Below are positions 9,763 through 29,039 of a stretch of 64,000 nucleotides of DNA, in pieces. Position numbers and translations under genes: made by a program. Position 1 is the first letter of the stretch. The number at the start of each line of letters is the position of its first letter. This DNA comes from Spirochaetia bacterium (GTDB lineage Bacteria; Spirochaetota; Spirochaetia; UBA9216). Below the pieces are notes generated by a model. That model was not told the DNA's origin, searched no databases, and was given only the letters and a program-made list of their open reading frames with translations. Location of the stretch: the NCBI GenBank assembly GCA_963675665.1, contig OY776510.1, positions 1-64,000 of the forward strand, given 5' to 3'.

Positions 9763-9847
9763 ATTTTACACTCCGTTTTCCGATTCTCAAGGGCAAGACA
9801 AGTAAAATGGCTGCGCCATTTCCCCCTTGACAATCAGAAAAGCGGAG
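9763..9847 (-). promoter_or_regulatory. conserved hairpin upstream of GxxExxY copy 1 (putative ssDNA promoter)
   Basis: CTCCGTTTTCCGATTCTCAAGGG pairs with CCCTTGACAATCAGAAAAGCGGAG; inner TGGC-GCA-GCCA hairpin on the minus strand; TTGAGA-N16-TAAAAT on the minus strand. Confidence 0.6.
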
Positions 9848-9882
9848 CTGTCGCTGGAATGTGAAATTTCAGGAGGTACAGT

Positions 9883-10248
9883 ATGGTTCTGTATAAAGAG
9901 TTAAGTTATCAAATTATAGGCTGCTGCATGCAGGTACACAAAGGGCTCGGTTGCGGCCTGCTTGAGCAGTGTTATCACAACGCTCTTTATTTTGAGCTTA
10001 AGGAAGCAGGATTTCAGGTGCGTTATAATGCTCCGTATGAGGTAAAATATAAAGGCAATACCGTCGGTGAATATCTTGCCGACCTTGTCGTTGAGGGAAA
10101 AATTATCCTTGACCTGAAGTCCGTAAAACAATTGGCAGAGACTCATCAGGCGCAGTTAATCAATTATCTGCGCATTTCCGGTTGCCGTGTAGGTTACCTG
10201 CTTAATTTTCAGACCTGCAGGCTTGAGTTTCAGCGGTTTGTGGTGTGA
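9883..10248 (+). CDS. GxxExxY protein (PD-(D/E)XK nuclease-like), copy 1
   Basis: GLLEQCY, ADLVVEGKIILDLK, AQLINYL, GYLLNF; AGGAGG RBS. Confidence 0.92.
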   Translation: MVLYKELSYQIIGCCMQVHKGLGCGLLEQCYHNALYFELKEAGFQVRYNAPYEVKYKGNTVGEYLADLVVEGKIILDLKSVKQLAETHQAQLINYLRISGCRVGYLLNFQTCRLEFQRFVV

Positions 10249-10255
10249 GCCCTTA

Positions 10256-10795
10256 TTATGTCAAATCAAGATCAAAGACATCAAGAGCTTTTCCATCGCC
10301 CTCCCATTCAAGGGTTCCTTTGCATTTATGGCACCACCAGATTGTTTTAAGATATTTTTTCTCAACAAGCGTCGGGATTTGATCATAGAACTTTTTATTG
10401 TCCGGATACAGTTCGCTGTAAAAGTGATACAGCCCTTTTGTCCTTTTTCTGCCGTTACAACTCTTACAGACAAGAACCTGATTGTGAATTGCCTGGATAT
10501 GTTCACAAGTGGGGCACCGTTCGTTGATTTTCAGGGATTTCGGTATAATATGTTCCCGTTACAAATCTTCTTCGGTGCCACAGTAGGCGCATCTTCTTTC
10601 GGCATTTACAAGCTGTTTATCCTCCCGCAGGATCTAGGACCATTTAATCTCATTATCACGAAGCTCCCGGAATTTCACCTTAACAAATCCGTATAATTTC
10701 TTCTTTGCATCAGCCCCAATTGCACTTCTTGCGATGACCTTTGCATACTGGTAATAGATTAGATCTTTTATTGTCTTAACTTCTTTATCAGGCAA
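10256..10795 (-). pseudogene. HNH endonuclease pseudogene with two in-frame stops
   Basis: hand translation MPDKEVKTIKDLIYYQYAK...KWS*ILRED...CAYCGTEEDL*REHIIPKS...NQVLVCKSCNGRK; TAG at 10634-10636, TAA at 10559-10561. Confidence 0.85.
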
Positions 10796-10818
10796 GGTTT
10801 ACTCTATAACTTCATATA

Positions 10819-13665
10819 TCAAGCTGCTATTATTCCGTTAATAAATGTTTCGACAAAACCGAGGAGTTTTGCTGTTATTCGTTCTGCCGTGGTCTTGCGT
10901 TCCTTCAGAGCAGGGCGATTGTTCATCACTCCGATTATATCATCACGAAGCGGAACTTTTTCGGTAAACAGATAATTACCGATAAGCTCCTGGAGCCTGG
11001 CAGGTTCGATATCTTCCTCAAGTCCGATTTGTTGCAGGGCAAGAAGCTGTTCTTTATCCCAAAAAATCTGGAACGCCTCAGGGATATCGTCGGAATCTGC
11101 GATGAACGTAAGATTCTCGTTTATGAATTTCTCTATAAGCTCGCGCTTACTGCGCATATGAGCATCACCGGCAAGCAGATCAATGATTACTTTTTTCTGT
11201 TTTTCATACTCGCCTTCGTCGGCGTCTTTAAGATTAGCCAGCAGTTTCAGGATATAGGCTACGTTTATTTCATCACGGTGGATAAGCTCAAGCTCGAAAT
11301 CTATATCGTTGAGAATTGAGACCTTTTCCTTCTGATTATAGCCCTTCGCCTTATCATAGAGGTCCAGATACTTGCTCTTGTAATCTTCAAAACGCTGCTC
11401 GTCCATGGATAGATCACCAAAGCTGAATTGGGTAAAGGTTTTAAGCACGTTCCGGATGCGCATCAGCTCGCGGAAGATCTTTATAAACTCAAGCGCGGCA
11501 TTTTCATCGGGAAGATTGTTGACGCTGTCCACCGTGGGTGCAATCTTCAAGAGCTCAATATAAGCCTCATTAAACTTTCCGACATATTCTTCATAAGGCT
11601 GCATGATGATAATATCTTTGGCGTCCTTATTTGCAAATAGCGCTATTGCATCATCCGTAGCCTTCTTCAGATTTCTGAAACAGACTATATTACCCTGAGA
11701 CTTTAATTCATTGAGTATTCGGTTGGTACGGGAGTAGGCCTGAAGCAATCCGTGGTATTTAAGATTCTTATCCACAAAGAGGGTGTTAAGGTTTTTGCTG
11801 TCGAAGCCGGTGAGAAACATATTAACCACCAGGAGCAGATCAATTTGCCGGTGTTTAACCCGTTTGGCAAGATCATTGTAATAGTTATAGAAACTCTTGC
11901 TGTCGCGGGTGGTGAAGTTGGTACCGAACTGAGAGTTGTAATCGCCGATAAACTCCTCAAGCGAATCGCGGGAATGCTGATTCACAGGCCCGGCATCGGC
12001 CGCAAGGGCGTTACAGTCATCATCGATAAAAACACCCACGGCATCCTTATCATCCTCGTTTGCAGCATAGGAAAAGATAGTAGCCACCCTGAGGTTGTGC
12101 TCGCCTTTCTCTTTTTTAAGCCTGAACAGATGGTAATACTCGATAAGAACATCAATACTCTGCACCGCGAAGACAGCCGTAAACTCGCGGTTGTGAGTCT
12201 TGCGCCCGTGATTGGCGATTATGTAGTCAGTAATAATGTTCAGACGAGGCGGAGCATTCATTACCTCGGCACGGTCTATATCCTCAACCTCAATATCGAA
12301 AATATGCTCCTTCTTTTTAAAGGTACGGATATATTCGATGGAAAACTTAAGGACATTCTCATCACGGATGGCATCGGTAATAACATAGCGGTGAAGCATC
12401 TTGTCGAACAGCATCGACGTGGTGCGCTTGCCGTATTCGTTCGTACCCGCGTTCTCTTTAAAGATAGGCGTACCCGTAAAACCGAACATCTGACAGCTTC
12501 CGAAGAAACGCTTGATATCCTCATGCGTCTTACCGAACTGCGAACGATGACACTCGTCAAAGATAAAAACAACCCGCTTGTCTTTTAACGCCCCCATCCT
12601 GCCCAGATACTTCTTCTTACTGATGGCCGTGTTCAGCTTCTGTATAGTAGTGACAATGAGTTTATTATCACCCGCCATCTGCTTAACCAAAGTCTCTGTG
12701 TTATTCGTGCCGTCGATGCTCCCTTTGCTGAAGCTGTTGAACTCTTTGGTAGTCTGATAATCAAGATCCTTGCGATCGACTACAAAGACAACCTTGTGAA
12801 CCTTTGGAGAGCGCGTAAGAATCTGCGCAGTCTTGAATGAGGTAAGCGTCTTACCCGAACCCGTCGTATGCCAGATATAACCGTTTTTAACCGTCGTCTC
12901 AACCCGCTCAATAATAGCCTCGACCGCATAAAACTGATAAGGCCTGAGCACCATCAGGATCTTCTGCGACTCATTAAGAACCACATAGCGCGTAATCATC
13001 TTTGAGATATGACAGGGCTCAAGAAAGACATCGGCAAAATCGGAAAGCTGGGAGACAATTTTGTTGTTCACATCGGACCAGTAAAAAGTCTGCTTGAACG
13101 AACGCGCCTTTACCGGACCGTTGGCATAATACTTGGTATTCACCCCGTTACTGATTACAAAAATCTGAATAAACTGAAAAAGCCCCTGCCCCGCCGAATA
13201 CGAATGCCGCTCATAGCGGTTGGTCTGATTGAAGGCCTCCTTAAGCTCAAGCCCCCGCCGTTTAAGTTCAATCTGCACCAGCGGCAGACCGTTAAAAAGG
13301 AGCGTAACATCATAGCGGTTCCTGTAAGCATCCTCCATAGTAACCTGCCGCGTAACCTGAAACTCATTCTTGCACCACTGAAGCTGATTAATAAGCTCGA
13401 CCGTCTTATGCTCGCCCTCCTCGTTAATGTAAGGTACACGATCACGCAGGATCTTAGCCCGCTCAAAGATATTACCCTTGCTTATGTAGTTGAGGATCTG
13501 CTTAAAATCATTATCAGAAAGCTCAGTCTTATTATGAACCTCAAGCTGAACCCTGAGATTGGCAAGCAGCTCAGCCTCGTCCCTGACGACGACCTGCTTA
13601 TAGCCCAAACCGCACAACTGCTTTACAAGAGCATCCTCAAGAATAACCTCGGGCTGGGTAGTCAT
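10819..13665 (-). CDS. hsdR: type I restriction endonuclease subunit R
   Basis: YDVTLLFNGLPLVQIELK, WHTTGSGKT, DECHR, GFTGTP, MFLTGFD, QAYSRTNR; ATG overlaps the hsdS stop (TAATG). Confidence 0.96.
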   Translation of the reverse strand: MTTQPEVILEDALVKQLCGLGYKQVVVRDEAELLANLRVQLEVHNKTELSDNDFKQILNYISKGNIFERAKILRDRVPYINEEGEHKTVELINQLQWCKNEFQVTRQVTMEDAYRNRYDVTLLFNGLPLVQIELKRRGLELKEAFNQTNRYERHSYSAGQGLFQFIQIFVISNGVNTKYYANGPVKARSFKQTFYWSDVNNKIVSQLSDFADVFLEPCHISKMITRYVVLNESQKILMVLRPYQFYAVEAIIERVETTVKNGYIWHTTGSGKTLTSFKTAQILTRSPKVHKVVFVVDRKDLDYQTTKEFNSFSKGSIDGTNNTETLVKQMAGDNKLIVTTIQKLNTAISKKKYLGRMGALKDKRVVFIFDECHRSQFGKTHEDIKRFFGSCQMFGFTGTPIFKENAGTNEYGKRTTSMLFDKMLHRYVITDAIRDENVLKFSIEYIRTFKKKEHIFDIEVEDIDRAEVMNAPPRLNIITDYIIANHGRKTHNREFTAVFAVQSIDVLIEYYHLFRLKKEKGEHNLRVATIFSYAANEDDKDAVGVFIDDDCNALAADAGPVNQHSRDSLEEFIGDYNSQFGTNFTTRDSKSFYNYYNDLAKRVKHRQIDLLLVVNMFLTGFDSKNLNTLFVDKNLKYHGLLQAYSRTNRILNELKSQGNIVCFRNLKKATDDAIALFANKDAKDIIIMQPYEEYVGKFNEAYIELLKIAPTVDSVNNLPDENAALEFIKIFRELMRIRNVLKTFTQFSFGDLSMDEQRFEDYKSKYLDLYDKAKGYNQKEKVSILNDIDFELELIHRDEINVAYILKLLANLKDADEGEYEKQKKVIIDLLAGDAHMRSKRELIEKFINENLTFIADSDDIPEAFQIFWDKEQLLALQQIGLEEDIEPARLQELIGNYLFTEKVPLRDDIIGVMNNRPALKERKTTAERITAKLLGFVETFINGIIAA

Positions 13666-14867
13666 TACACAAACATCCTCTGAAGCAACCAATTTTTCCA
13701 GCTCTGAGACAACTCAATCTGTGAAGCAACCTGTTCGATAGCTCTGTCGATGGAGGAGAGGAAGGAAGCGATCTTTTGCTGTTCGGGGAGTGAGGGGATA
13801 AAAAATTTTAATGTTCGAAGATCATTTCCGGTAAATCCCTTGATAGATGTACCCTGAGCCAGTCGAATAAATCTACCTGAAAATGCACTGAAATAATAAG
13901 CCAGAAACCACGGATTCTCATTTGTTATCATATTGGTAAAATCCTGACTCGTACAAAGGTCTTGGCTTGAAACCGCGAATTTTCCGATCCCGACCCTCGA
14001 AACAATTAAAACACTATTTTTAGGAATAATCTTTGTTGCTGACTCCTTAACAGCCTTGCCCGTAATAAATCTTGTAATATTTATTTTAGAAATCGAATTC
14101 TCACATAAATCTGAACTGGAAATCCACGGGACATCACCCTTCCAATACTCTTCGTTTGTACTATCAGGAGTTCCGCCTCCAATGAATGAACCAATATCAC
14201 CCAGCTTTTTCTCTTCCCAATCAGGGAAATCATTATCGTTTTCATCCTTGAAGCGCAATTTCTGAGAGAAAATCTTCTGCATGATGCCTTTTTTGTATTG
14301 CTCCAGTGCTTCTTTCTTTTTCTGCAGCAGGCTGACACGTTTATCCACTGCGGTAAGGAAAACGGCTATGCGGGTTTGTTCGGGGAGTGTGGGGAATTTA
14401 AATCTACAATTAGAAAAATCTGTTTTATTAATTTGAGGAACAGCTTGGACTCCTGCAAGGAGTTTAATCCTTTTGCCATTTTTTAATAGTATAAAGTAAA
14501 TAAAATCATCGATATATTGTTTATGAGCTTCTAATGCATTTATCTGTTGATTAGTCACAGAGTTACAAGATGTCTGACCAACTTTGCCAATTGTTGAACC
14601 TATGGAGACAAAGAGCGTACTATTCTTCTTTATAATTCGTCCATTTCTAAAGCCTGCTTCTGTTAATGTAGTTTTAGTGGTTTCTATGTATCTACCGTTA
14701 TTTAGGTCCACAGGAGATATAAACAAATAGTCACCATCATAAAATTCTTTCACAGATGTTGGGGGAGTACTTCCCGTCGTTATTTTAGATATTTCCCCTA
14801 ATCTTTTCTCTTCCCACTCTCCTTCAAATCCTGGGAATCTCAGCCGGGGCACATTCTTATTGTTCAT
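13665..14867 (-). CDS. hsdS: type I R-M specificity subunit
   Basis: VPRLRFPGF, two WEEKxLG TRD starts, PTLPEQ/PSLPEQQKIA, LLQRMFV. Confidence 0.95.
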   Translation of the reverse strand: MNNKNVPRLRFPGFEGEWEEKRLGEISKITTGSTPPTSVKEFYDGDYLFISPVDLNNGRYIETTKTTLTEAGFRNGRIIKKNSTLFVSIGSTIGKVGQTSCNSVTNQQINALEAHKQYIDDFIYFILLKNGKRIKLLAGVQAVPQINKTDFSNCRFKFPTLPEQTRIAVFLTAVDKRVSLLQKKKEALEQYKKGIMQKIFSQKLRFKDENDNDFPDWEEKKLGDIGSFIGGGTPDSTNEEYWKGDVPWISSSDLCENSISKINITRFITGKAVKESATKIIPKNSVLIVSRVGIGKFAVSSQDLCTSQDFTNMITNENPWFLAYYFSAFSGRFIRLAQGTSIKGFTGNDLRTLKFFIPSLPEQQKIASFLSSIDRAIEQVASQIELSQSWKNWLLQRMFV

Positions 14868-15140
14868 CCATCATTCTCGTTTTTTCGAATATTTGGGGAA
14901 GGATAATCCGTGGCCATACCTGCGACGCTGATTTTTCCTCTTAGGGGGTTGTCCATGCCCCATAAATAGGCTTCAGGTACTTGTTTTTGGTCTTTAAACA
15001 TAGTTTAATCCCTTTGAATGATGGCTAATTATATCGTTGATGGGTATGATTGGGAAGAATAAAATCATTATGAAAAAGAAAAGACATTGCTTACAAGCTG
15101 ATTGTTTCTATTGATTTAAAACCTTAAATGTGAAAAATCA

Positions 15141-16148
15141 TTATTTTGAAATAATTCCATAGATTCTATTATCTAGTCTGATCGCAGAAATAAAGACATT
15201 GTAATCAGGCAATGATTTCCCATCACTAGTTCTCCATATTTTTGCATTTTCTATATCAAAACAGGTATTTCCAGTTTGAAATGTATTATATACACAACTT
15301 TCTAAAGGGACTCGCATGTTTTTGAATAAACACAGATTGGATTCAGAAGCAGCCTGATTGCGGGCTTGGGGAATCACCCTTAATGCTAATGTCTCAGGAC
15401 GATTATCCATCTTCATTCTCATTTCAGCAATGAAGATTAGGGTCGGATGAGTACAAAATTTTACTATTCCATTTGCTGTAGATAGTAAACTAGCAGTAGG
15501 GGCAAAATTTTCTCGGATCGAATTAACAATATCAAATGTCAAGTTGTTTTTTATTGATCCACGAAGATGGTGTCTGAGTAGATCCGGATAGAAAGCAAGA
15601 TTTCCAGCAATTTTATCCATTAGTCTTTCAATAGGATTTGTTCTAATAATTTCATCTCTCCTATATGGCAAGACTAGTTGTGGCGGTTCAGCTATACGGT
15701 GTGCGAATTCATGAAACCTGTTCCAATATGCTCTATATTCAGTATGTGTTAAGTTAAGTACTGCAACCCAACGGTCATTATCATCAGAAGCGGCATGCAT
15801 CCTTTGAAATAACCATGCATCGATATTCGGTTTATGTATTTCCTTTCTTACTTGAGTAAATCCTATTTCTTTCTTTTGTTTTAGATAACGAGACTCAAAG
15901 GTTTCTAGATCCTGGTCATTACGGAGTTCCTCGACCTTTACCTGGAAACTTTCGGCAATTTCATTAGCAAAGATTTCCCCTTTAGGTTTAATACCGATAG
16001 CAAATGGACGAACCATTTTTACACATGCGTCAATAATTTCTTTATCTTGTTCAACACAATTGCTCCATTCTTTACCAACATTGAGGTTTTTTACTATTGC
16101 GTCGAGTCTTAATCCATCTTCAATTGTAACATTGTATCTGTTTTCCAT
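15141..16148 (-). CDS. ImmA/IrrE-like zinc metallopeptidase (CapP-like)
   Basis: HEFAH zincin motif followed by ExxMDxxA; directly downstream of an XRE HTH gene. Confidence 0.72.
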   Translation of the reverse strand: MENRYNVTIEDGLRLDAIVKNLNVGKEWSNCVEQDKEIIDACVKMVRPFAIGIKPKGEIFANEIAESFQVKVEELRNDQDLETFESRYLKQKKEIGFTQVRKEIHKPNIDAWLFQRMHAASDDNDRWVAVLNLTHTEYRAYWNRFHEFAHRIAEPPQLVLPYRRDEIIRTNPIERLMDKIAGNLAFYPDLLRHHLRGSIKNNLTFDIVNSIRENFAPTASLLSTANGIVKFCTHPTLIFIAEMRMKMDNRPETLALRVIPQARNQAASESNLCLFKNMRVPLESCVYNTFQTGNTCFDIENAKIWRTSDGKSLPDYNVFISAIRLDNRIYGIISK

Positions 16149-16151
16149 ATA

Positions 16152-16583
16152 TCATTCCTTAAGAAAGGGCTTTACACTTTCATAAAAACTGATCCATTCG
16201 TTTTCACTCCATTCCGGTTCATTATTAGTTGATCGTCTTCCTACTAATGTTTTTTGACCCCTATAAATTTGTATTGTCGTTGAGAATTTAAGATTCAATT
16301 TTTCAGCAGCTTTTGAAAGTGCTATTGGAATATTAATAGTATTTTTATTGTCATCGTTATCAGTAGAAGGAGATAAAATCTCCTGAAGCGGGACCCTCAG
16401 AGCTTCTGCTAATCTATTCAGTTTTTCTCCAGAAATGTTTGAAAGTCCTCTTTCAACTTCTGACAAGTATGCAGGGCTGATATTACTCATTTTGGCCAGA
16501 GCGCTTCCTGTTAATCCTTTTTCTGTTCGTAATTTTCTTATATTTAACCCAATTTTTAACTTTAACTCGTCTTTTTCAGACAT
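16152..16583 (-). CDS. XRE-family HTH regulator (CapH-like)
   Basis: IRKLRTEKGLT..LA..SNISPAYLSEVERG; start moved to ATG 16583 after AGGAG. Confidence 0.85.
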   Translation of the reverse strand: MSEKDELKLKIGLNIRKLRTEKGLTGSALAKMSNISPAYLSEVERGLSNISGEKLNRLAEALRVPLQEILSPSTDNDDNKNTINIPIALSKAAEKLNLKFSTTIQIYRGQKTLVGRRSTNNEPEWSENEWISFYESVKPFLKE

Positions 16584-16599
16584 ATCTACTCCTTTTTTC

Positions 16600-16635
16600 T
16601 TGACAAAGTTCGGTATATCGTATATATTCGGTATA
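16600..16635 (+). promoter_or_regulatory. promoter of the Ubl operon with overlapping direct repeats (candidate operator)
   Basis: TTGACA-N17-TATATT; TTCGGTATA at 16609 and 16627. Confidence 0.6.
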
Positions 16636-16708
16636 ACAGATTTTAAATCTGTGGTATATGTTATTTTACGCCATACCATATTTTATGTCAAGGAATTTGG
16701 AGGTTCAA

Positions 16709-16960
16709 ATGAAACCTGAAAAAGACAAGATTTACGAGATAATTGTAAATGCAAAGAAAGTTCAAGTAGACCATAAAAGGGTCTCCTTTGAAGAAATTGT
16801 GATTATAGCTTTTGGTTCGTACACGCCATCGGAAACGGTAATTTATACTGTTACCTTCAGCAAAGGTGAGCATGGGCATGAAGGATCACTAGTTGCTGGT
16901 AAAACAGTCAATGTAAAAGATGGGATGGTGTTTAATGTCAAACAAACTAATAAGTCATAA
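16709..16960 (+). CDS. multiubiquitin-domain ubiquitin-like protein
   Basis: 83 aa, IIVN..VSFEEIV..YTVTF..GSL..G..V.VKDGMVFNV pattern; GGAGG RBS. Confidence 0.8.
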   Translation: MKPEKDKIYEIIVNAKKVQVDHKRVSFEEIVIIAFGSYTPSETVIYTVTFSKGEHGHEGSLVAGKTVNVKDGMVFNVKQTNKS

Positions 16961-18480: not shown

Positions 18481-18539
18481 TCTGCCTTTAAATCACCGTC
18501 ACGTTTCTCCGAAATATCCAATACGGTGTTCCTTTCGCT

Positions 18540-19987: not shown

Positions 19988-20918
19988 TTCCTAATAACCT
20001 TGACCAACTATCTATAACAAACTCTTGATCTCTTACAGCATCCAAATTCATTATTTTTCTGCTTATTCTGTCTAAAGCAACCGAGATTATTCTTCTTTGA
20101 GTGGAATTAGCAGGACCTAAATAATCATCAACATGCAAAGATTGCCCAGTTTTGTCAGTTATTGGTGATTTTACAGCGTTTACTGCTTCTTTAAAGAAAT
20201 ATTTAACCATTTCTTTATAAGTTTTTGTATCATTATATTTCCTAAAAATATTTACTGCTAATGATTCTATATGATAACCACTCAATTGTTGTTTTTCTGG
20301 TAAGCTTTTTATTATAGCTTTGACCAATTTTATCGTAGGAACTACAATTCCATTATTTTCCTTATTAACAGATGTAAGTATGTCGGTAAAACTCTTGGTA
20401 TTAATATTAGACCAATGTTGTCCATCAATTGAGCTTATCTTCAATCCGTTACCGACCCGAATAGCCGGAAGTAATTGGATTTCATAATCTTTAACTTGAA
20501 TTGTAACCGCCAATAGCCCAGAACTAACGTTTTCATTTCCATATTTCTTCGATAATATTTGTTGAATCAATTCCTTAATCTCTTTTGGAGTTTTTCCATC
20601 CGCTGCAGACTGATCTATACATACTAAGGAATCGATATCACTAATTCCTTCTACATATGTATTTTTCTGAACAGAACCTCCAAATAATATATTTATAGTA
20701 TCGGAAATTATATCTTTTAATTCGTCTTTAATTGAATCCAAAAGCTCATTAATCTCATCACTATTTCGATCATTACAATGAACCAATTGCTTAGCAAGAT
20801 AATCATTTACTAAAGTATTTATACCTTCGTCAGCATTAGTTTCATTTGCTTCCCTAATCTTCTTAACCTCATCTGCTGGATTAATTCTCCGCCATACACT
20901 GCTTCCCGAACCACCCAT
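19977..20918 (-). CDS. CD-NTase/SMODS cyclic oligonucleotide synthase
   Basis: FGGSVQKNTYVEGISDIDSL nucleotidyltransferase motif, IQLLPA, LSGYHIESL; N-terminus MGGSG. Confidence 0.87.
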   Translation of the reverse strand: MGGSGSSVWRRINPADEVKKIREANETNADEGINTLVNDYLAKQLVHCNDRNSDEINELLDSIKDELKDIISDTINILFGGSVQKNTYVEGISDIDSLVCIDQSAADGKTPKEIKELIQQILSKKYGNENVSSGLLAVTIQVKDYEIQLLPAIRVGNGLKISSIDGQHWSNINTKSFTDILTSVNKENNGIVVPTIKLVKAIIKSLPEKQQLSGYHIESLAVNIFRKYNDTKTYKEMVKYFFKEAVNAVKSPITDKTGQSLHVDDYLGPANSTQRRIISVALDRISRKIMNLDAVRDQEFVIDSWSRLLGNDQ

Positions 20919-21937
20919 CATTTAACTCCTTTTACCTTTGTTCCAAGACGATCCATAGCACTCTTTATTCTATCAGCATGTATTCCGAATTTACTAAAAT
21001 CTTTCGTATCTAAAAACTCCCTAAGAATATATTCTATATTTTCAAGATTATATATATTTTCTCGTATACTATTTAGTGCAATTTGTTTTTCTGTAGTCTG
21101 AATTCCCCATTTTAAAAAACCATAATTATGTGGATATATACAGGTGTTATCGTAGTACGAATAACGCAACCAGGTTAATCCATCAAAAATCTCTGCTCCT
21201 GCTAAAAAATATAAACACACACTAATAGGATCTAAAGCTCCGAAAATATGTAATGGAGCACTTATAGATGCTTCATCAAGTGCCTTCCTAACACGTGAAA
21301 TATTTACCATACGATCTAAAATAGATGGACCTAACTCTTTTTCTGTTAATCCAATAATATCAAATTTGCTAAACCTATCGATGTTTATTATTATTTTCTT
21401 GATAACATCATCTTTTAATTTATTATCATTCTCGCTTTCAGGTTTTATTAAGAACAAATTTAACTGGTCAGAATAATTACTAAATATATCCAAGGCAATT
21501 TCAATCTGATCTTCAAGGCTTTTTCTCTCTTTAGGATTATCATAGCTAACGAAAACACTTGAATACTCTTTCGGCCAATTTGCCAGAACTTCTTTATATA
21601 GTTGCACATTCCATTTTTTGGCTTTAACTGGTACATGAACTACTGTCGAATAATCATCTGTTTCAGAAACCTCATAACCACCGCTATCTAGAAAGAAAAG
21701 CTCTGGAATTGTTTCAAGCTTTAAAGGTTCAGTAATATATTTATAATAAATATCATATGCACTCACAAGGCAAGCTTTTGTAAAAAACTCACTTGCAACA
21801 TGATAAATTTTATCAATTCCTTTTTTACCTGACACCTTAAAATTAAAACCTTTACTTGAGAAAGAAGGTATCAGCAATGGAGTGTTTACTTTAAGTCCAC
21901 TTGCTTTATGATGAATATTTGAACTTCTTGCAATCAT
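20918..21937 (-). CDS. TGT (tRNA-guanine transglycosylase)-like protein (Cap10-like)
   Basis: TPLLIPS, FFLDSGGYE, LHIFGAL, AGAEIFDG. Confidence 0.8.
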   Translation of the reverse strand: MIARSSNIHHKASGLKVNTPLLIPSFSSKGFNFKVSGKKGIDKIYHVASEFFTKACLVSAYDIYYKYITEPLKLETIPELFFLDSGGYEVSETDDYSTVVHVPVKAKKWNVQLYKEVLANWPKEYSSVFVSYDNPKERKSLEDQIEIALDIFSNYSDQLNLFLIKPESENDNKLKDDVIKKIIINIDRFSKFDIIGLTEKELGPSILDRMVNISRVRKALDEASISAPLHIFGALDPISVCLYFLAGAEIFDGLTWLRYSYYDNTCIYPHNYGFLKWGIQTTEKQIALNSIRENIYNLENIEYILREFLDTKDFSKFGIHADRIKSAMDRLGTKVKGVK

Positions 21938-22481
21938 ACAGATACTCCAAATCTTTACAACTTCGACATTTACCACATGGTTGCTGCAACCCCAACTCGC
22001 AACTATATGTCTTATAACGATTTAGCTTATTTTTAATAAAGTAATTATAAATTTCTAATTTATCCCAGTTTAAAAAAGGTGCAACAAAGGTCAATCGGCC
22101 CGAACTATAGTTATTAACTATTTCTTTTGCCACTTTATAAAAATCAGGTGAACAATCATAATATGAAGTACCGGAATGAATGCCCATAGCAATAATCCCT
22201 TTGTTATGTCCTTCCATTAAAGCCGCACTTAATAGAAATAAATTGCGCCCCAAAATCTCGCCAGAGTGTAAAGTGATATTATTTTTATATTCACAAATTT
22301 TTAGAGGTATTTCCATCTCTTTTGCTATTTGAAGAACAGTTGACCGTTCCTGTTTATTGCTTAATTGCCCATAATCTACAAATAACAAATTACGTGAGTA
22401 TTCTTCCCCTGAGAATATATGAACACAAGAAGTAGAGTCTAATCCTCCACTAAATAGAATTGTTACATTTACTTTTTCCAC
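21906..22481 (-). CDS. QueC-family ATP pyrophosphatase (Cap9-like)
   Basis: LFSGGLDS, VDYGQ, GRN, YYDCS, TYSC..PCGKCRSC. Confidence 0.9.
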   Translation of the reverse strand: MEKVNVTILFSGGLDSTSCVHIFSGEEYSRNLLFVDYGQLSNKQERSTVLQIAKEMEIPLKICEYKNNITLHSGEILGRNLFLLSAALMEGHNKGIIAMGIHSGTSYYDCSPDFYKVAKEIVNNYSSGRLTFVAPFLNWDKLEIYNYFIKNKLNRYKTYSCELGLQQPCGKCRSCKDLEYLYDCKKFKYSS

Positions 22482-22711
22482 TTCCTCTTCCTATTAAAAA
22501 TAATCAAAGGAACATTATATTTATAAAATTACTCAATAATATCATATACCTTAATAAATTTCGACCATTTTTAGTATTTGATAAACCTTGTCACAACGAT
22601 AACTAACATCTAAACAACTATCAACTCATCACATTCTTACTCATATTTCATTGCCTCACAACAACTTACACCCAATCCGCGGCCTCCTAAATCCGTGGCA
22701 AAACAACTCTC

Positions 22712-23077
22712 CTACACCACAAACCGCTTAAAAACAACCCTTGCACCCTGAAAATTAACCAGATACCCCACCCTGCACTTGCTTATATGAAGATAGTTAA
22801 TAAGCTGCGCCTCATGCATACCCGAAAGAGCCTTAACAGCCTTAATTTCAATAATAACCCGATTATCAACAGCCAAATCAGCAAAAAACTCACCCACCTG
22901 CTGCCCCCGATAAAAAACATTAAGCGGAGCATTATAAACAACATTTAACCCCAAAGACCTTAACTCATAATACAAAGCATTATAATAACAAGACTCAAGC
23001 AACCCCGACTTCAACTCATTATGAACGCTGAAAAACCCACCCACGATTTTATTAGACAACTCTTCAAACAACAGCAT
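22712..23077 (-). CDS. GxxExxY protein, copy 2
   Basis: GLLESCY, ADLAVDNRVIIEIK, EAQLINYL, GYLVNF; AGGAGG RBS. Confidence 0.92.
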   Translation of the reverse strand: MLLFEELSNKIVGGFFSVHNELKSGLLESCYYNALYYELRSLGLNVVYNAPLNVFYRGQQVGEFFADLAVDNRVIIEIKAVKALSGMHEAQLINYLHISKCRVGYLVNFQGARVVFKRFVV

Positions 23078-23107
23078 AACCTGCCTCCTTTTTTCTTAAA
23101 AAGACAG

Positions 23108-23196
23108 CAGGCTTGCAGTGACGAGCAGTCAAGGGTAAAAATGGCATAGCCATTTTACTCGCCTTGCCCTTGACGGCGAGGAGCGAAAGGTATAAT
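23108..23196 (+). promoter_or_regulatory. conserved hairpin upstream of GxxExxY copy 2 (putative ssDNA promoter)
   Basis: GTGACGAGCAGTCAAGGG / CCCTTGACGGCGAGGAGC stem, inner AAAATGGC-ATA-GCCATTTT; TTGACG-N15-TATAAT on the 3' arm. Confidence 0.6.
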
Positions 23197-23535
23197 GAAA
23201 AAACCCGGAGGCAGATAAGATATTTTCACCCAAAAGCGTAAACAAAAAGAAATATCGCTTCGCGGCTGCTAGTTTAAGCGAGACTATAGGGATTAACGCA
23301 GGCCGTGTTACCCGCGTGCTTTACCCCGGCCATCCGTGGCAAACAACCTCTTCCTGAAGAAATTCAACCACGAAATCCCAGATATTACGTAACATTTATA
23401 GAATTTTTCACGTAGAAGGATACATCTAAAAAACTGTTTTGAAATTATATACATGCCCATCTGATAATATAAAAACACACTTCGATTTGCTATAAATCCG
23501 TGGCTCTCTTCATCCGTGGCAAATAAACTCTAATT

Positions 23536-23919
23536 CTATATCTCTTCGATTTTGCCATTAATAGGCAACATTAAAGATTTACCACGTGAGACTTTAGTTT
23601 TGATTTCATCCCATCTTCTCAATAATTTCCATGATAAATCCCAGAAACTCTGATCTTTCCAACCCTTTTTCATGAAAACAATCGGCAAACCAGACTCTTG
23701 CCAAGCTAAAAATTCATGCGGATTTCTTTTAATATTTCGATCTTTAGTAATTATAAAACATCCGTCAATTTTTGAAAGTTCATTAATCCATTCTATATCT
23801 TTCGTTGCAGGCGGAAACATTTCCCGTAAATGCTTCACCTGAACTCCGGACCTGCCCTCTAACTCGTTGAAAGCTTTAGAAATTCTTGGGGGAAGATTTT
23901 CATCAAAGATACACGTCAT
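23536..23919 (-). CDS. PIN-like toxin (VapC45-like)
   Basis: FDENLP, KDIEWI, IITKDRNI. Confidence 0.8.
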   Translation of the reverse strand: MTCIFDENLPPRISKAFNELEGRSGVQVKHLREMFPPATKDIEWINELSKIDGCFIITKDRNIKRNPHEFLAWQESGLPIVFMKKGWKDQSFWDLSWKLLRRWDEIKTKVSRGKSLMLPINGKIEEI

Positions 23920-24593
23920 GCAACCAGTCTCATTTCAAAATCAATAGCCATATCAATATACTTTAAATCAATATCATACCAATCCGAGATATCTTTTTTA
24001 GTATGACCGGAATTATATAGATCCATTATCATTTCAGTGCTGACATTAATATCGTCAATAATAGGCTTTCCAAAATTTCTGGAAGGATCAATAACAATTC
24101 CGCTATCCTTTCCCAACGGCCACCATTTCTCTGCAATTTCATAATTGTTGAAATCTATGCATTCATACAGAGTAGGTAAAATAATCTCCGCAAATTGATA
24201 CTGTTTTTTTAATAAATCTATTAATTCTATTGAATCTGATTCTTTAGCTATCTTTGCAATGATCGTTTTGCCGTCAGTGTATATTTTTTTCATAGCAAAA
24301 GGATGCTCGGAATTTAACAACCTTGAGGCGCTTTCTATAGCGACCCGAATTGTCTGGATGCTTATTCCATATTGGTGAAAAGCCTTGATAAATAGAATTT
24401 CAATAATATCCAGAAAACTTAAAACCTTTTTCGAATCAATCTTATCATAATCTGAATCAAATACAGGTTGAATTTCATTATTAGAGTCTGAGCGCTTATA
24501 ACCTTCCGACCATCTCCTGATTTTGATCAGGCTTAGACCTGTTAGATGAGAAACCTCTTTATATGTATATAATCCATTACCGATATAGTTCAT
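23916..24593 (-). CDS. HTH plus DUF433 antitoxin-like protein
   Basis: GLYTYKEVSHL..IRRW, LSFLDIIE, IVIDPSRNFGKPII; overlaps the PIN gene start. Confidence 0.8.
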   Translation of the reverse strand: MNYIGNGLYTYKEVSHLTGLSLIKIRRWSEGYKRSDSNNEIQPVFDSDYDKIDSKKVLSFLDIIEILFIKAFHQYGISIQTIRVAIESASRLLNSEHPFAMKKIYTDGKTIIAKIAKESDSIELIDLLKKQYQFAEIILPTLYECIDFNNYEIAEKWWPLGKDSGIVIDPSRNFGKPIIDDINVSTEMIMDLYNSGHTKKDISDWYDIDLKYIDMAIDFEMRLVA

Positions 24594-24781
24594 TTATCCA
24601 CCTTCATGGCCATTTTTTCTATTATATTTTATAAATCGTCTTAATATTACATAATTATAATCCAGATTACCGCCATACGTATAGAACAATTTTGTCCAAG
24701 CACTGTGTTACCCGACTGTTCCACTACATATATCCGTGGTCTCAAAATCCGTTGCTAAATACTAAAAATAAGGATTAGGCC

Positions 24782-24959
24782 CCTACACCACAAACCGCTT
24801 AAACACAACCCTTGAACCCTGAAAATTAACCAGATACCCCACCCGGCACTTGCTTATATGAAGATAGTTAATAAGCTGCGCCTCATGCATACCCGAAAGA
24901 GCCTTAACAGCCTTAATTTCAATAATTACCCGATTATCAACAGCCAGATCAGCAAAAAA
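24782..24959 (-). pseudogene. 3' half of a GxxExxY gene, near-identical to 22711-22888
   Basis: ~178-bp direct repeat with few mismatches; 5' half of the gene and the hairpin are absent. Confidence 0.88.
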
Positions 24960-25145
24960 TATAAGGAAAAGTCCTGGAGGTAGACAACATATTAGCGCCC
25001 GAAACCATAAACAAAAAGATAAATCCGTAGTTTTCTTTATCGGTTCGCGGCGACTATTTTAGTCAACCTATTGGGCTTAACGCCGCCTGTAACCAATTAC
25101 TCTGCTCTCATTAGCTCTTGACTGATAATCTAAAGTTGATTCAGA

Positions 25146-25637
25146 CTATGGTTGAAAAACAAACCGGACTCTTTCCCGTCTGAGCAGATCAAATGTGTTA
25201 ATATACGGAATATTCATTGCAATACAAACATTTGGGATTTTTACCTTTTTTCGGCTTTCTCCAGGAGTTTCAAGCGTTACAACGGTATGCCCGCCGGCAA
25301 GAGCCTGCGCACAAAGATAATAATCAGCTATCTGGAGAAATTGCATAACAGCAGCCTGATCATAATCTCCGCTGTTCACCCATAAACTGATATTCTGTAA
25401 AGTCGCTACATCCAACTGTTGAGGCTGTAGAAAAAAATCCGCAGGCAGTGAATGAACCCAATCAACCAGTTCATCTTCTCCGGCAATGATCTCATCTTTT
25501 ACTTTGGATACGCTGAAAACCTGATTCCCATCATGTGCTTCCCTCAACCAAGTCCAGAACCCCGGACAAAAATCCATACCGTAATATAGATTTTTTGCAG
25601 CTATAAGCACATTAGAATCAAGTAAATACGCCATCAA
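25146..25637 (-). CDS. DUF4411-family PIN-like protein
   Basis: YLLDSNVLI, FCPGFWTWL, ADYYL, VVTLE, KIPNVC. Confidence 0.85.
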   Translation of the reverse strand: MMAYLLDSNVLIAAKNLYYGMDFCPGFWTWLREAHDGNQVFSVSKVKDEIIAGEDELVDWVHSLPADFFLQPQQLDVATLQNISLWVNSGDYDQAAVMQFLQIADYYLCAQALAGGHTVVTLETPGESRKKVKIPNVCIAMNIPYINTFDLLRRERVRFVFQP

Positions 25638-26791
25638 CCATAGACCTCAAGCTTGTGGCTCATGGCTCTGAAAGTCTCCATATTCTTCATACCCAGCATT
25701 CTCATAGCCTCAGTAAAAGGAGTAATGCCCTCCCAGGTACTGCTTATAATAGCCTTTGCGAACCTGTGCCCGGTACGAACAAGGGTGCTGTTATAATAAT
25801 CGCCGCCTGTACTCCTCCCCTGGCGCTTAATACTAAGCAATCTTTCCAACTCTGAATTATAAGCAGTTCGATATCCCGAAAAAGAAAGAATCCCTATATC
25901 AAATAATCTTCTGAGGATTACAAGAGTACTCACTTTAAAAAAACGAGCGAGAATTTTCACCTCATCCGCTAATGGCAGATCATTACGGCGTTGTTCCTGT
26001 AATTCAGAAATAGGTACAAGAAACTCTGCAGCAACCTTGTTACACCATAGCTCAGTAGATTCAGAAGAAGGTTCAAGACTGACATCACTCAAACCCGAAC
26101 TGCCCAGCCATAGATGAGCAAGTTCATGAATAATAGTAAAAATCTGGGCAGCCTTTGTATCCGCTCCATTCACAAAGATCACCGGAGCATATTCATCCGC
26201 AATTGCAAAACCTCTGAACTCTTCCGGATTCAGAATCCGATGAGTATTGCTGCCGACAATACCATTAATAAATACAAGCACACCATACTCTTCAATTTTC
26301 TCTCTTAAAAAACGCAACATCTCAGAGAAAGTACTTACTCTACTACGAGCATAGGCATTAATTCCAAGTTGATCTTTGATATCAACAGCAACAAGGGCAG
26401 GATCATCAGCAGTAGTTACGGAACCGACGAAGGGAAAAGCGTCAAAACCTTCGCCACGTGCATATTCCCGATACCAGGATTGTCTCAACTGTGCGGAATA
26501 AACGACCTCAAGAAGGTCCGGAGACGGCTCTGCTTGCTCCTCACCGGCCATCCTTCTGAAATCAGGTATTGGTAACTCTAATCTGGGGGGGGTAGAAAGA
26601 TAGAGGAACCCGACAGGAGTATGAGTAGCGTTTGAAATCTTCTCGAGTTGCTTAAAAGTGGGGAATATATCACCGGAAAGCCATTCATTCCACTTCGGGA
26701 ATAAATGATAGAGTCGTTCATCAGTTATCCCCGATCGCTGAGCAGCCCAGGTTAAAACTTCCGGTGTTACCGGCACGCGTGTGACAGCCAT
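25634..26791 (-). CDS. HTH plus ImmA/IrrE metallopeptidase
   Basis: PTFKQLEK HTH, PDFR, EFRGFA, FTIIHELAH, ELWCNKVAAEFL. Confidence 0.88.
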   Translation of the reverse strand: MAVTRVPVTPEVLTWAAQRSGITDERLYHLFPKWNEWLSGDIFPTFKQLEKISNATHTPVGFLYLSTPPRLELPIPDFRRMAGEEQAEPSPDLLEVVYSAQLRQSWYREYARGEGFDAFPFVGSVTTADDPALVAVDIKDQLGINAYARSRVSTFSEMLRFLREKIEEYGVLVFINGIVGSNTHRILNPEEFRGFAIADEYAPVIFVNGADTKAAQIFTIIHELAHLWLGSSGLSDVSLEPSSESTELWCNKVAAEFLVPISELQEQRRNDLPLADEVKILARFFKVSTLVILRRLFDIGILSFSGYRTAYNSELERLLSIKRQGRSTGGDYYNSTLVRTGHRFAKAIISSTWEGITPFTEAMRMLGMKNMETFRAMSHKLEVYG

Positions 26792-26864
26792 TACTTTTCA
26801 ATTACTCCTGAAAATAAGTATATCTTAACCGTTTACAATCAACAACAATATTCCATACCAGTCA

Positions 26865-28442
26865 TTACATTTTAAACGGTACAGTTATACCAAGCTCTTT
26901 ACAGTAGCCAGCTATCTCTTCATTAACCTCTTCAAGCTCATTCTCAATATCTACCAACGATACCGCAACAGCATCAAGATCAACCGGCTCCTCCTCTTCA
27001 AAGGTATCAACATAGCGCGGGATATTCAGATTGTAATCATTCTCGGCGATCTCGGACAAAGCAGCAGCATATGAATACTTGTCCTTAGTTTCACGAGAAC
27101 GAAAGGTCGAAACAATCTCTTCAACATCGCTGTCCCGAAGTGCATTCTGATTACCCTCTTTTACAAAATGCCCGTCTCCGCTTGCATCAATGAAGATGAT
27201 ATTATCATCAGACTTCCTGCACTTCTTGAATACAAGGATACAGGTAGGGATGGATGTACCGTAAAAAATGTTCGCCGGCAGCCCTATTACTGCATCAAGA
27301 AAATTAAGCTCCTTAATCAGATACTCCCTTATTACGCCCTCGGCAGCGCCTCTGAACAGAACACCGTGCGGAAGCACAGTAGCCATAATGCCGTTATCAG
27401 CGAGCTGATGGATCATGTGCAGAACAAATGCATAATCAGCCTTGGTCTTCGGCGCCAATTTACCGTATCGGCTGAAGCGTTCATCGGAGCTGTACAGCGG
27501 GTTTGCATCACCCTTCCAGTGGGCGGAGAACGGCGGATTAGCGACAACAGCCTCAAAGCGTTTATCAAGGTGCTGAGGATTTTCAAGGGTATCCTCGTGC
27601 CTTATATCAAAATTACGATAGTGAACATCATGCAGGATCATATTCATCCGAGCGAGGTTGTAGGTAGTCCGGTTCTGCTCCTGACCGAAAAACTCGCTGA
27701 CATCATCCACCTCGCGGGCGACTCGTAGAAGAAGAGAACCCGAACCGCAGGTAGGATCATACACCGATTTAAGCCTGCGCTTTCCGGTGGTAACAACCTT
27801 TGCCAGGATCTTCGAAACCTGCTGGGGCGTATAAAACTCTCCGGCCGACTTGCCCGCCCCAGCGGCGAACTTACCTATTAAATATTCATAAGCATCACCG
27901 AGAACGTCAGAATCAACCTCTTTCAACTTGAAATCTATCTTATCAAGATTTACAAGGATTTTAACGATTATCTCGTTTCGGGCTCCTACCGTACGTCCAA
28001 TCTTGGTGGAGTTAAGATCAAGATCCTCAAACAGGGCGTTAAAATCATCCTCCGATTCGGTTCCCATGGTGCTCTGCTCTATATGGTTCATGATCGCCTG
28101 AAGATCTTCGAGAATATAATTGCTTTCGTTCTCGGTATCGGAACTGCCGCGCTTGGCAAGCTCTGAAAAAAGCTCATGCGGCTGCAGGAAATATCCCAGC
28201 TTTAAAAGCGATTCTTCTTTTATTACTTCAAGGGTTTCAGGATCTTTCACATCCCTGTAATCGGTTACCTCTTCGCCCACTAATAGTTCATTGACGTAAA
28301 GATACTGTTTCTCACTGAGATATTTATAAAAAATAAAACCGAGTATGTAGTCACGGTAATCATCAGCACTGATCTTCCCCCGAAGCAGGTTGGCTATGCC
28401 CCATAATTGTTTTTCAAGCAGTTGTTTTTGATCATCAGACAT
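26865..28442 (-). CDS. hsdM: type I R-M methyltransferase subunit (N6-adenine)
   Basis: LWGIANLLRG, GDAYEYLI, GEFYTP, YDPTCGSGSLL, ANPPF, LPHGVLFRG, YNLNIPRYVD. Confidence 0.97.
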   Translation of the reverse strand: MSDDQKQLLEKQLWGIANLLRGKISADDYRDYILGFIFYKYLSEKQYLYVNELLVGEEVTDYRDVKDPETLEVIKEESLLKLGYFLQPHELFSELAKRGSSDTENESNYILEDLQAIMNHIEQSTMGTESEDDFNALFEDLDLNSTKIGRTVGARNEIIVKILVNLDKIDFKLKEVDSDVLGDAYEYLIGKFAAGAGKSAGEFYTPQQVSKILAKVVTTGKRRLKSVYDPTCGSGSLLLRVAREVDDVSEFFGQEQNRTTYNLARMNMILHDVHYRNFDIRHEDTLENPQHLDKRFEAVVANPPFSAHWKGDANPLYSSDERFSRYGKLAPKTKADYAFVLHMIHQLADNGIMATVLPHGVLFRGAAEGVIREYLIKELNFLDAVIGLPANIFYGTSIPTCILVFKKCRKSDDNIIFIDASGDGHFVKEGNQNALRDSDVEEIVSTFRSRETKDKYSYAAALSEIAENDYNLNIPRYVDTFEEEEPVDLDAVAVSLVDIENELEEVNEEIAGYCKELGITVPFKM

Positions 28443-28548
28443 GGTGGAATTATATCCTTCAGGGATTTGAATGTATAGAAGTTTTTTAACCGGGGCCTAC
28501 ACTCAGATAAATTCTTGCTGATCAAAACCGTTAATATGACAAGCTCCC

Positions 28549-28920
28549 CTACACCACCAAACGCCGCCAAACGACACGCCTGCCGTTAAAATTAACCAGG
28601 TAACCGACTTCAAGACCTGACAACCGCAGATAGTTAAGCAGCTGTGCTTCCATTGCAGGAGTAAACTCTTTAACAGATTTAAGTTCTAATATTATTTTGC
28701 CTTCAACGACCATATCAGCAATATAGGCAGCCGCTAGCTCACCACGATAGTAAACCGGATAAACATGCTGTCTGCTGATTTCAAGCCCGCGATGCTTAAA
28801 CTCTATAACTAAAGCACCTTCATAAGCTGATTCCAATAATCCGGGCCCCAGGGAATTATGTACCGCAAACACAGCACCCAACACCTGATTTGATAATTCA
28901 TTTTCAATTAACTCTGACAT
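28549..28920 (-). CDS. GxxExxY protein, copy 3
   Basis: LGPGLLESAYE, ADMVVEGKIILELK, EAQLLNYL; start moved to ATG 28920 after AGGAGG. Confidence 0.92.
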   Translation of the reverse strand: MSELIENELSNQVLGAVFAVHNSLGPGLLESAYEGALVIEFKHRGLEISRQHVYPVYYRGELAAAYIADMVVEGKIILELKSVKEFTPAMEAQLLNYLRLSGLEVGYLVNFNGRRVVWRRLVV

Positions 28921-28947
28921 ACGCAGCCTCCTGTTTTTGAAAACAGG

Positions 28948-29039
28948 AACCTTCAAGTGACGAGTAGTCAAGGGACGAAAACAGCGAAGCTGATTTTCGT
29001 CTTGCCTTGCCCTTGACGACGAGGAACGGAGGTTACAAT
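28948..29039 (+). promoter_or_regulatory. conserved hairpin upstream of GxxExxY copy 3 (putative ssDNA promoter)
   Basis: AACCTTC-AA-GTGACGAGTAGTCAAGG / CCTTGACGACGAGGAACGGAGGTT stem, inner GACGAAAACAGC-GAA-GCTGATTTTCGTC; TTGACG-N15-TACAAT. Confidence 0.62.

Follow-up and report, generated by a model that had tools for sequence, protein, structure and literature searches.

The stretch of DNA analysed here comprises the first 64 kb (referred to as the window) of the single-contig, 5.15-Mb genome (43% G+C) of a member of the Spirochaetia (contig OY776510.1). It carries three intact GxxExxY genes (copies B, F and C; Table 1), each of which is preceded by a leader of approximately 135 bases with the potential to fold, and it is this leader and its possible role in the expression of the downstream gene that we describe in the following. 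The membership of the three window genes in the GxxExxY/PDDEXK_3 family is evident from their matches to Pfam PF13366 (E-values of 4e-40 to 2e-35; 122-137 bits at a cut-off of 22) and to TIGR04256 (E-values of 1e-41 to 1e-37; 129-142 bits at a cut-off of 35). The genome as a whole contains eight matches to this family: six intact genes, one gene with a stop codon, and one fragment (24789-24959). Protein identity among the full-length genes is about 50-70%, and the leader is found in front of all seven of them, three of which lie in the window and one of which is the gene with the stop codon.

In a survey that covers it, the GxxExxY/PDDEXK_3 family is classed as being of unknown function with multiple transfers (PMC3424549). 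The residues E30, D69, and K81 are invariant among 49 aligned sequences, and E79 is present in at least 90% of them. An AlphaFold model of the protein (predicted local distance difference test score, pLDDT, 94.7) has as its neighbours in a Foldseek comparison the Cas4 protein SSO0001 (E 1.5e-4), archaeal Hjc resolvases (E 1.1e-3), and lambda exonuclease; a comparison at the sequence level with solved structures gave no relevant match. On the strength of the model, the GxxExxY protein is predicted to be a minimal PD-(D/E)XK nuclease whose catalytic residues are intact.

When the copies are compared at the DNA level, similarity has sharp limits: its 5' border is a CCTCC motif some 135 bases ahead of the ATG, and it extends as far as the stop codon. 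Read along the sense strand, the leader begins with this CCTCC-like segment and a T-run, followed by a box of the type (C/A)ATTnTA(C) and by the base stem and the outer stem. Its middle part consists of the stem P1 (GTCAAGGG), a 9-base bulge (CAAGGCAAG), a variable inner hairpin (P2), and the returning arm P1' (CCCTTGAC). The 3' part comprises the return strand of the outer stem, a short A/T-rich hairpin, an A-run, and the sequence AGGAGG, which is separated by 6-8 bases from the ATG. An initial annotation of this DNA had reported a hairpin in front of each of the three window genes, and this hairpin is indeed present in the three window copies at the positions given there. It has a stem of the type (G/C)TCAAGGG and CCCTTGAC, a 9-base bulge of the CAAGGCAAG type (whose template strand contains CTTG), and an inner hairpin that varies in sequence and has loops of the form GC-NNN-GC. 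The 5' arm of P1 and the bulge together (9786-9802, 23174-23158, and 29017-29001) read as three consecutive CAAGG-like units (GTCAAGG-GCAAGG-CAAG), and since this unit occurs three times, more than one pairing register could be open to the single CCTTG in the 3' arm.

Table 1. Positions of the GxxExxY genes, of their leaders (with the Shine-Dalgarno sequence, SD, and the segment complementary to it, anti-SD), and of neighbouring features in the window.
Feature	Position	Strand	Details
GxxExxY gene B	9883-10248	+	121 amino acids
Leader of copy B	9747-9882	+	R1 match 9747-9885, E 1.1e-17
Copy B, leader parts			anti-SD CTCCTTC 9747-9753; T-run 9757-9761; SD 9871-9876
Copy B, boxes	9790-9763	-	TTGAGA-16-TAAAAT; -10-like TAAAAT at 9763-9768
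Copy B, stems			outer stem 9771-9785 with 9832-9847; P1 9786-9793 with 9824-9831
Copy B, bulge and inner hairpin			bulge 9794-9802; inner hairpin ~9803-9822
GxxExxY gene F	22712-23077	-	121 amino acids
Leader of copy F	23078-23214	-	R1 match 23075-23212, E 4.2e-21
Copy F, leader parts			anti-SD CTGCCTCC 23214-23207; SD 23089-23084; pyrimidine-rich 3' flank 23127-23112
Copy F, boxes		+	-10-like TATAAT 23196-23191; -35-like TTGACG 23170-23175
Copy F, stems			P1 23174-23167 with 23135-23128; bulge 23166-23158; inner hairpin ~23157-23137
GxxExxY gene C	28549-28920	-	123 amino acids; immediately upstream of hsdM
Leader of copy C	28921-29055	-	R1 match 28918-29055, E 3.0e-20
Copy C, leader parts			anti-SD GTCTCC 29055-29050; SD 28932-28927; 3' flank 28966-28945
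Copy C, boxes		+	-10-like TACAAT 29039-29034; -35-like TTGACG 29013-29018
Copy C, stems			P1 29017-29010 with 28974-28967; bulge 29009-29001; inner hairpin 29000-28975
Truncated GxxExxY copy	24789-25000	-	family positions 60-116; leader start fused straight to mid-gene
Terminator-like hairpin	9419-9446	+	12 pairs, then TTTTATTT; behind the pyruvate:ferredoxin oxidoreductase gene (5806-9345)
hsdR	10819-13692	-	type I restriction-modification; ~13 kb from hsdM
hsdM	26865-28442	-	
QueC-like gene	21906-22481		
PIN_10 and DUF433 pair	23536-24593		
DUF4411 and ImmA/IrrE-like pair	25146-26791		

We built a covariance model (R1) from the seven copies present in the genome. On this genome, R1 recovers these seven copies only (each with E <= 1.3e-14), the next match having an E-value of 0.14. 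Matches are present in 15 of the 101 genomes of relatives searched (own genome included), where they are spread over several families of the class and occur in seven of the 10 genomes of the own family, and in 15 genomes of a sample of 151 from the class. Overall, 58 matches were obtained, representing 52 distinct sequences in about 20 Spirochaetia genomes. At each of the 34 loci that were read, the match runs straight into a GxxExxY open reading frame (ORF) or a remnant of one, and at least seven of these ORFs are disrupted. Among 79 GxxExxY loci of many phyla, matches were confined to those labelled as Spirochaetia, with none at the 70 others (0/70); upstream of the GxxExxY genes from outside the Spirochaetia, there are short tandem repeats instead (CACAGAT or CACGGAT type). 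Such cassettes bracketed by short repeats share with ours the gene family, the habit of lacking a promoter, and the location in variable regions; the leader differs from the repeats in being a single, non-repetitive, structured element of 135 bases with promoter-like boxes. In viral contigs, a 16-base degenerate pattern is present in at least 119 stretches, and R1 matched none of the 80 loci taken from them. Rfam 15 gave no match in the window at the gathering score, and relaxed thresholds yielded matches at chance level only, the best one being STnc380 with 20.6 bits (cut-off 60). Among the papers that a full-text search listed for GxxExxY/PDDEXK_3, no description of a leader or promoter for these genes was found. 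With its 52 copies, four covarying helices and no counterpart in Rfam, the leader is a well-supported new structured element.

The helices are supported by an alignment of the 52 copies that was fitted to the model and hence favours it somewhat. In this alignment, 90.7% of the cells pair (77.9% in shuffles), and both partners vary in 17 of the 22 pairs. The covariation score of 0.399, compared with 0.166 in shuffles, was reached by none of 500 shuffles, and slid controls did not exceed 0.119. The covariation noticed in the initial annotation thus holds in a larger alignment, and it supports four helices. The outer stem comes in two types. Type I is Watson-Crick paired throughout, apart from one bulged G (CCGTTTTC.../...GAAAAGCGG). 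In type II, covarying Watson-Crick pairs are interleaved with two tandem mismatches that read C.T/T.C on the sense strand; both are kept in 12 of the 52 copies and one of them in about six more. These are the two tandem GA mismatches that had been described with a compensatory change, and the pair between them does covary. A third subtype of the leader, present in about 14 copies (L154, L155, L159, L058, L059, L161, L165, L071, L166, L061, L164, L167, L171, and L080), has a conserved 16-base loop of the ACGCTTCGCTCTTCG type with repeated CGCT in place of the CAAGGCAAG bulge and P2.

One helix was absent from the initial annotation. In this helix (helix 1), the far-upstream CCTCC segment pairs with the SD region located about 110 bases away. 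All five of its pairs change on both sides, and 96.5% of the cells pair. The covariation extends beyond the SD itself, as is seen from the combinations CTGCCTCC/GGAGGCAG, TCGCCTCC/GGAGGCGA, and ACTCC/GGAGT, and further from AATACTCCTTTTT/AAAAAGGAGTATT, from TGCAC-TCC/GGAGGTGCA, and from locus L093, in which 13 consecutive pairs can form.

In 52 of 52 copies, the promoter-like boxes are located on the strand opposite to the gene and 5' of it. The -35-like box reads T51 T51 G39/T12 A51 C41/A9 N (51 copies) and the -10-like box T49 A50 n A47 A45 T51 (52 copies), with a spacer of 15 bases in 24 copies and of 16 bases in 28. In the -10-like box the third position alone is free, and this position is the least conserved one of the sigma-70 -10 hexamer. 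Twelve of the 52 copies carry a GTAAAGG variant of the 5' arm, by which the box becomes TTTACA; the A.G mismatch that results in P1 is never compensated. In duplex DNA, the boxes point away from the gene and have a short spacer. In the folded template strand, the -35 box lies in stem P1, the spacer forms the outer stem, and the -10 box falls into the internal loop that separates the base stem from the SD helix; the mean pairing probabilities calculated with DNA parameters are 0.83, 0.72, and 0.37, respectively (48 of the 52 copies; the four without an 8-base P1 arm were left out). The pattern TTGA(C/G)N-15/16-TA(T/C/A)AAT that the initial annotation had assigned to the strand opposite to the gene is accordingly conserved in 51 of 51 copies for the -35 box and in about 45-51 of 52 for the -10 box, and the fold-back geometry proposed there is correct, as we could trace at the level of single bases in copies B, F, and C.

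Other promoter arrangements were considered as well. Of 39 loci, 24 lack a start codon behind the leftward GGAGG, and the remaining 15 have ORFs of 4-49 amino acids. A divergent gene under the control of the leftward boxes and this GGAGG is thereby ruled out, and since a start codon is missing at 24 of the 39 loci, the leftward GGAGG is more plausibly interpreted as complementing the anti-SD than as a site for ribosome binding. By reading of the alignments, no sigma-70-type pattern (TTGACA-N16-18-TATAAT-like) that faces the gene is conserved between the anti-SD and the SD. A sense-strand promoter starting from the TTGAC of the 3' arm was rejected, as none of the subtypes has a -10-like hexamer 16-19 bases downstream. 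Inspection of the leader by eye for sigma-54, sigma-28, and extracytoplasmic function (ECF)-like patterns gave none that is conserved. Promoter scans of the flanks called three sites per region, with 1.5-2.1 expected, and are thus uninformative.

Structural details of the leader differ between its two strands. On the template strand, the tandem mismatches have the sequence 5'-GA-3'/3'-AG-5', which is a stable sheared arrangement, whereas on the sense strand they are pyrimidine-pyrimidine pairs; the pair enclosed by the two mismatches covaries as C-G, G-C, or T-A. Of 22 triloops closed by C-G, 21 read purine-N-A on the template strand (GAA 6, AAA 4, GCA 4, GGA 4, ATA 2, ACA 1), and GNA loops closed by C-G are known as unusually stable DNA mini-hairpins. 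Folding with DNA parameters makes the template strand the more stable one in 37 of 52 copies by a mean of 1.17 kcal/mol (Wilcoxon p = 1e-4, with sequences that are mutually related); with RNA parameters this is the case in 28 of 52 copies, which is not significant. For the three window copies, DNA folding of the template strand yields -24.6, -17.7, and -17.9 kcal/mol (z-scores of -7.1, -2.9, and -3.8 from 200 shuffles each), compared with -18.0, -15.5, and -17.5 kcal/mol for the sense strand.

We tentatively propose that the leader may serve as a two-layer expression switch of a promoter-less nuclease cassette, in which masking within the mRNA is combined with a promoter on the folded template strand. 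The first layer is derived from the covariation data, the second from the sequence pattern and the strand-specific structure. In the mRNA layer, a transcript arriving from upstream would carry the CCTCC segment and the T-run, which would pair with the A-run and the GGAGG of the SD about 110 bases further on; because the CCTCC segment pairs with the SD, the GxxExxY gene would stay untranslated in read-through mRNA. In the DNA layer, the lone template strand (incoming, resected, or excised single-stranded DNA (ssDNA), or possibly an extruded cruciform) would fold into a long hairpin that mimics an open promoter: a duplex -35 element in P1 (TTGACN or TTTACA), a helical spacer of 15-16 bases, a TAnAAT -10 element on the non-template arm within the internal loop, and duplex DNA further downstream. 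With the other arm as its template, an RNA polymerase bound to this fold would proceed into the gene. The resulting mRNA would start a few bases before the SD, thereby excluding the anti-SD segment, and would be translatable because this segment is missing from it. Helices, boxes with their geometry, and the motifs specific to one strand can be read directly from the sequence; it is the transcription from the folded strand, its start site, and the source of the ssDNA that we infer. Doubtful, in our view, is the strict form of this proposal, according to which the nuclease is made only when the template strand of the cassette is single-stranded, read-through mRNA is silent, and the cassette relies on an ssDNA promoter of its own. 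The two-layer switch would cover the helix masking the SD, the placement of the boxes in stem, helix, and loop, and the motifs of the template strand, and there are precedents for each of its halves.

To our knowledge, ssDNA promoters have so far been known from the leading regions of plasmids, where they time the expression of anti-defence genes to DNA entry; the original work on these Frpo/ssi promoters is reportedly that of Masai and Arai from 1997. In two papers, the Frpo/ssi promoters of the F and ColIb-P9 leading regions are described as stem-loops that reconstitute the -35 and -10 boxes (PMC9849209, PMC11541004). By this description, the GxxExxY leader would share with them a long imperfect hairpin on the template strand of the downstream gene, sigma-70-type boxes on the 3' arm with transcription down the other arm into the gene, and a promoter that is inactive or faces the wrong way once the DNA is duplex. 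In contrast to the plasmid elements, the GxxExxY leaders are chromosomal and dispersed (seven copies on a 5.15-Mb chromosome); the leader is about 135 bases long with a spacer of 15-16 bases and a -10 box in an internal loop, its promoter activity is putative, and it is coupled to an anti-SD:SD helix and tied to one gene family.

The masking half of the switch resembles the control of the homing-endonuclease genes of phage T4 (I-TevI, I-TevII, I-TevIII, segB, and mobE), whose read-through RNA is described as hiding the ribosome binding site, which an internal promoter frees (PMC2988022). The two cases would have in common a small, selfish-looking nuclease gene that sits as a cassette among host genes, a ribosome binding site hidden by a stable hairpin in the read-through RNA, and an internal promoter whose transcripts omit the inhibitory arm. 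In T4, this internal promoter is described as a late or middle promoter of the ordinary duplex kind, situated on the sense strand, whereas the sole promoter-like element between the anti-SD and the SD of the leader lies on the opposite strand; moreover, the nuclease fold is PD-(D/E)XK in GxxExxY and GIY-YIG or HNH in T4. Folded ssDNA that is read by RNA polymerase in an orientation-specific manner is also found in the ssoA and ssoU origins of rolling-circle plasmids and in the hairpin promoters of the phage N4 virion RNA polymerase. Unlike these, the GxxExxY leader has no replicon, Rep gene, or phage context, and its product would be an mRNA and not only a primer.

Several observations weigh against the proposed switch. 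The prior for ssDNA promoters outside of plasmid leading regions is low, the dispersed copies are chromosomal, and a search of 72,556 plasmid records gave no DNA match to the leader. Not all Spirochaetia GxxExxY genes carry the leader; some have the short-repeat architecture instead, so that the leader belongs to one cassette lineage and not to the whole family. With a mean pairing probability of 0.37, the -10 box is mostly unpaired in the fold and is not rebuilt as a duplex as described for Frpo, and with a 16-base spacer and near-consensus sequences the boxes could be a working leftward duplex promoter. The energy difference between the two strands is small. Cumulative GC skew places the origin of replication at about 0.84 Mb and the terminus at about 3.54 Mb, and six of the seven copies are co-directional with replication, copy B being the exception; because of this, the template strand of these copies is the leading-strand template and would not be exposed at replication forks. 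Exposure as lagging-strand template is thereby ruled out as a general route, since it fits copy B only, and uptake, resection, an excised intermediate, and cruciform extrusion remain as candidate sources of ssDNA.

Wobble pairs, too, lend no support to folding of the template strand. Isolated mismatches flanked by Watson-Crick pairs were counted in sense-strand notation with a strand-neutral pairing script. A hand count of the alignments gave 13 A.C and 11 G.T cells in the outer stem and P1, with eight of the 11 G.T cells being the same T.G at the end of P1; in the inner hairpin P2 there were four A.C and eight G.T, some pairs being mis-assigned by the script, and in the SD helix 16 A.C and 31 G.T, which favours the mRNA strand. 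A separate covariation count yielded 29 U.G cells in the latter helix. The counts therefore do not demonstrate template-strand folding, and those of the SD helix point to mRNA. The split between the SD helix and the rest of the leader is what the two-layer switch predicts, though this was not predicted beforehand. Finally, the anti-SD:SD helix is a strong argument for a role at the mRNA level. The initial annotation had regarded the genes as being expressed specifically from ssDNA and had called for strand asymmetry to be examined. From its interpretation, the geometry and the strand-specific details persist, and an asymmetry is seen in the tandem mismatches, the triloops, and the DNA folding energies; it is not borne out by the G.T wobble counts, and the direction of replication, the lack of a plasmid match, and the anti-SD:SD helix that had been missed are all unfavourable to expression specifically from ssDNA.

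As to their surroundings, the window copies lie around a type I restriction-modification island, and the stretch from 10819 to 28442 has the appearance of a defence island (Table 1). At the 52 loci, the nearest flanking ORFs often belong to restriction, toxin-antitoxin, insertion sequence (IS), or RHS genes, and housekeeping genes are found as well (92 ORFs scanned). A comparison of the left and right flanks of the seven copies revealed no consistent target-site duplications or inverted repeats. Copy F, as the only one of the seven, lies between direct repeats of about 18 bases, GTTGTTT(T)GCCACGGAT (~23331-23349 and 22691-22711, minus strand), which resemble the end of an older cassette. Its upstream repeat follows what appear to be the last codons of an older GxxExxY gene, and for this reason cassettes may once have stood in tandem at this site. 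Short repeats of the CACGGAT type flank copy A (at 2.2986 and 2.2992 Mb of the genome), and at three loci of other Spirochaetia (L175, L174, and L177), GxxExxY genes without leader are positioned between complete hairpins of inverted arrays of 8-10-base repeats (such as CTCTGTG/CACAGAG and ACAGGAT/ATCCTGT). In the truncated copy (24789-25000, minus strand), about 40 bases from the start of the leader, with the CCTCC, the T-rich run, and a TTATA box, abut codon ~60; similar deletions centred on the palindrome occur in relatives (L063:189-375, L060, and L076). About 300 bases of unassigned sequence separate the terminator-like hairpin at 9419-9446 from the leader of copy B.

A possible, if uncertain, alternative to the two-layer switch is a leader that functions in the mRNA only, as the structured 5' untranslated region of transcripts that enter by read-through or start in the flanks; it would hide the SD and might contain an RNase III-type processing stem. 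Masking of the SD would then represent a translational operator for the nuclease or for another factor, and the boxes would either be incidental or constitute a leftward duplex promoter for a cis-antisense activator or insulator RNA, which would begin with the complement of the anti-SD. This explanation covers the SD-masking helix, whose strong covariation includes many U.G pairs on the sense strand, and it is in keeping with a local hairpin of the CTGTTTT/AAAACAG type that also covers the SD region in most copies. The GxxExxY cassettes of other phyla, which are promoter-less and stand right behind upstream genes, and the T4 endonuclease genes described above (PMC2988022) provide models for it. 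The near-consensus boxes with their 16-base spacer are plausible as a duplex promoter, those of copy B being called by the promoter scan at 10 of 12 matches. What an mRNA leader does not explain is that the -35 box, the spacer, and the -10 box occupy the stem, the helix, and the internal loop of one fold, or that the types of tandem mismatch and triloop present favour the stability of the opposite strand. Nor is a conserved feature found to the left of the boxes in the aligned copies, or a match to Rfam. Transcripts from upstream would not serve all copies: in a rough count restricted to ORFs of 100 amino acids or more, the upstream neighbour is co-directional at 28 of 50 loci and divergent at 22, and since copy B stands behind the strong terminator-like hairpin at 9419-9446, read-through cannot be the sole source of transcripts.

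It is improbable that the hairpin, in the manner of integron attC sites, the ends of IS200/IS605 elements, or repetitive extragenic palindromic (REP) elements, is a DNA site for mobility of the cassette or for the nuclease, at which the GxxExxY protein or a recombinase of the host would recognise or cut the folded strand or cruciform. Such a site would suit the sharp borders of the conserved unit, which extends from the CCTCC to the stop codon, the position of the copies in variable regions beside restriction-modification, toxin-antitoxin, IS, and RHS genes, the truncated copies that break inside the palindrome, the inverted short-repeat arrays around leader-less copies, and a protein that models as a minimal PD-(D/E)XK nuclease with Hjc Holliday-junction resolvases and Cas4 among its structural neighbours. 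It would account at best for the template-strand motifs and leaves the -35/-10 pattern and the pairing of the SD region unexplained; furthermore, the own genome has no leader copies without a gene, and each cassette has one hairpin with no matching right end. The core of attC sites is GTTRRRY, and an integron attC site was rejected given the P1 arms GTCAAGG/CCTTGAC, which are unlike this core, the position of the hairpin 5' of the ORF, and the dispersal of the copies on both strands. Very unlikely, lastly, is a palindromic operator or bidirectional control region bound as duplex by a dimeric regulator: the conservation of P1 on both arms and the CAAGG motif that occurs three times in a row would agree with it, and it covers the boxes in part, but neither the SD masking nor the template-strand motifs, and an inner hairpin that varies freely in sequence and length yet keeps pairing, base stems that covary, and a conserved bulged base and tandem mismatches argue for a folded single strand rather than a duplex binding site.

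GxxExxY/PDDEXK_3 is a very large and widely transferred family. If the promoter part of the two-layer switch fails, the leader is still a structured element with a clear SD-masking helix in front of a selfish-looking nuclease gene. If the strict form of the two-layer switch is correct, the required single strand would arise, for instance, on arrival through transformation or conjugation, by resection at a break, or in an excised intermediate, and Frpo-type transcription would no longer be limited to the leading regions of plasmids but would include a family of selfish or defence-island genes. The GxxExxY proteins would also gain a first functional handle, namely that they act on DNA while it is single-stranded. 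A conserved, covarying hairpin with the logic of an ssDNA promoter ahead of nuclease cassettes on the chromosome would indicate that transcription depending on the strand state of the DNA is more widely used.

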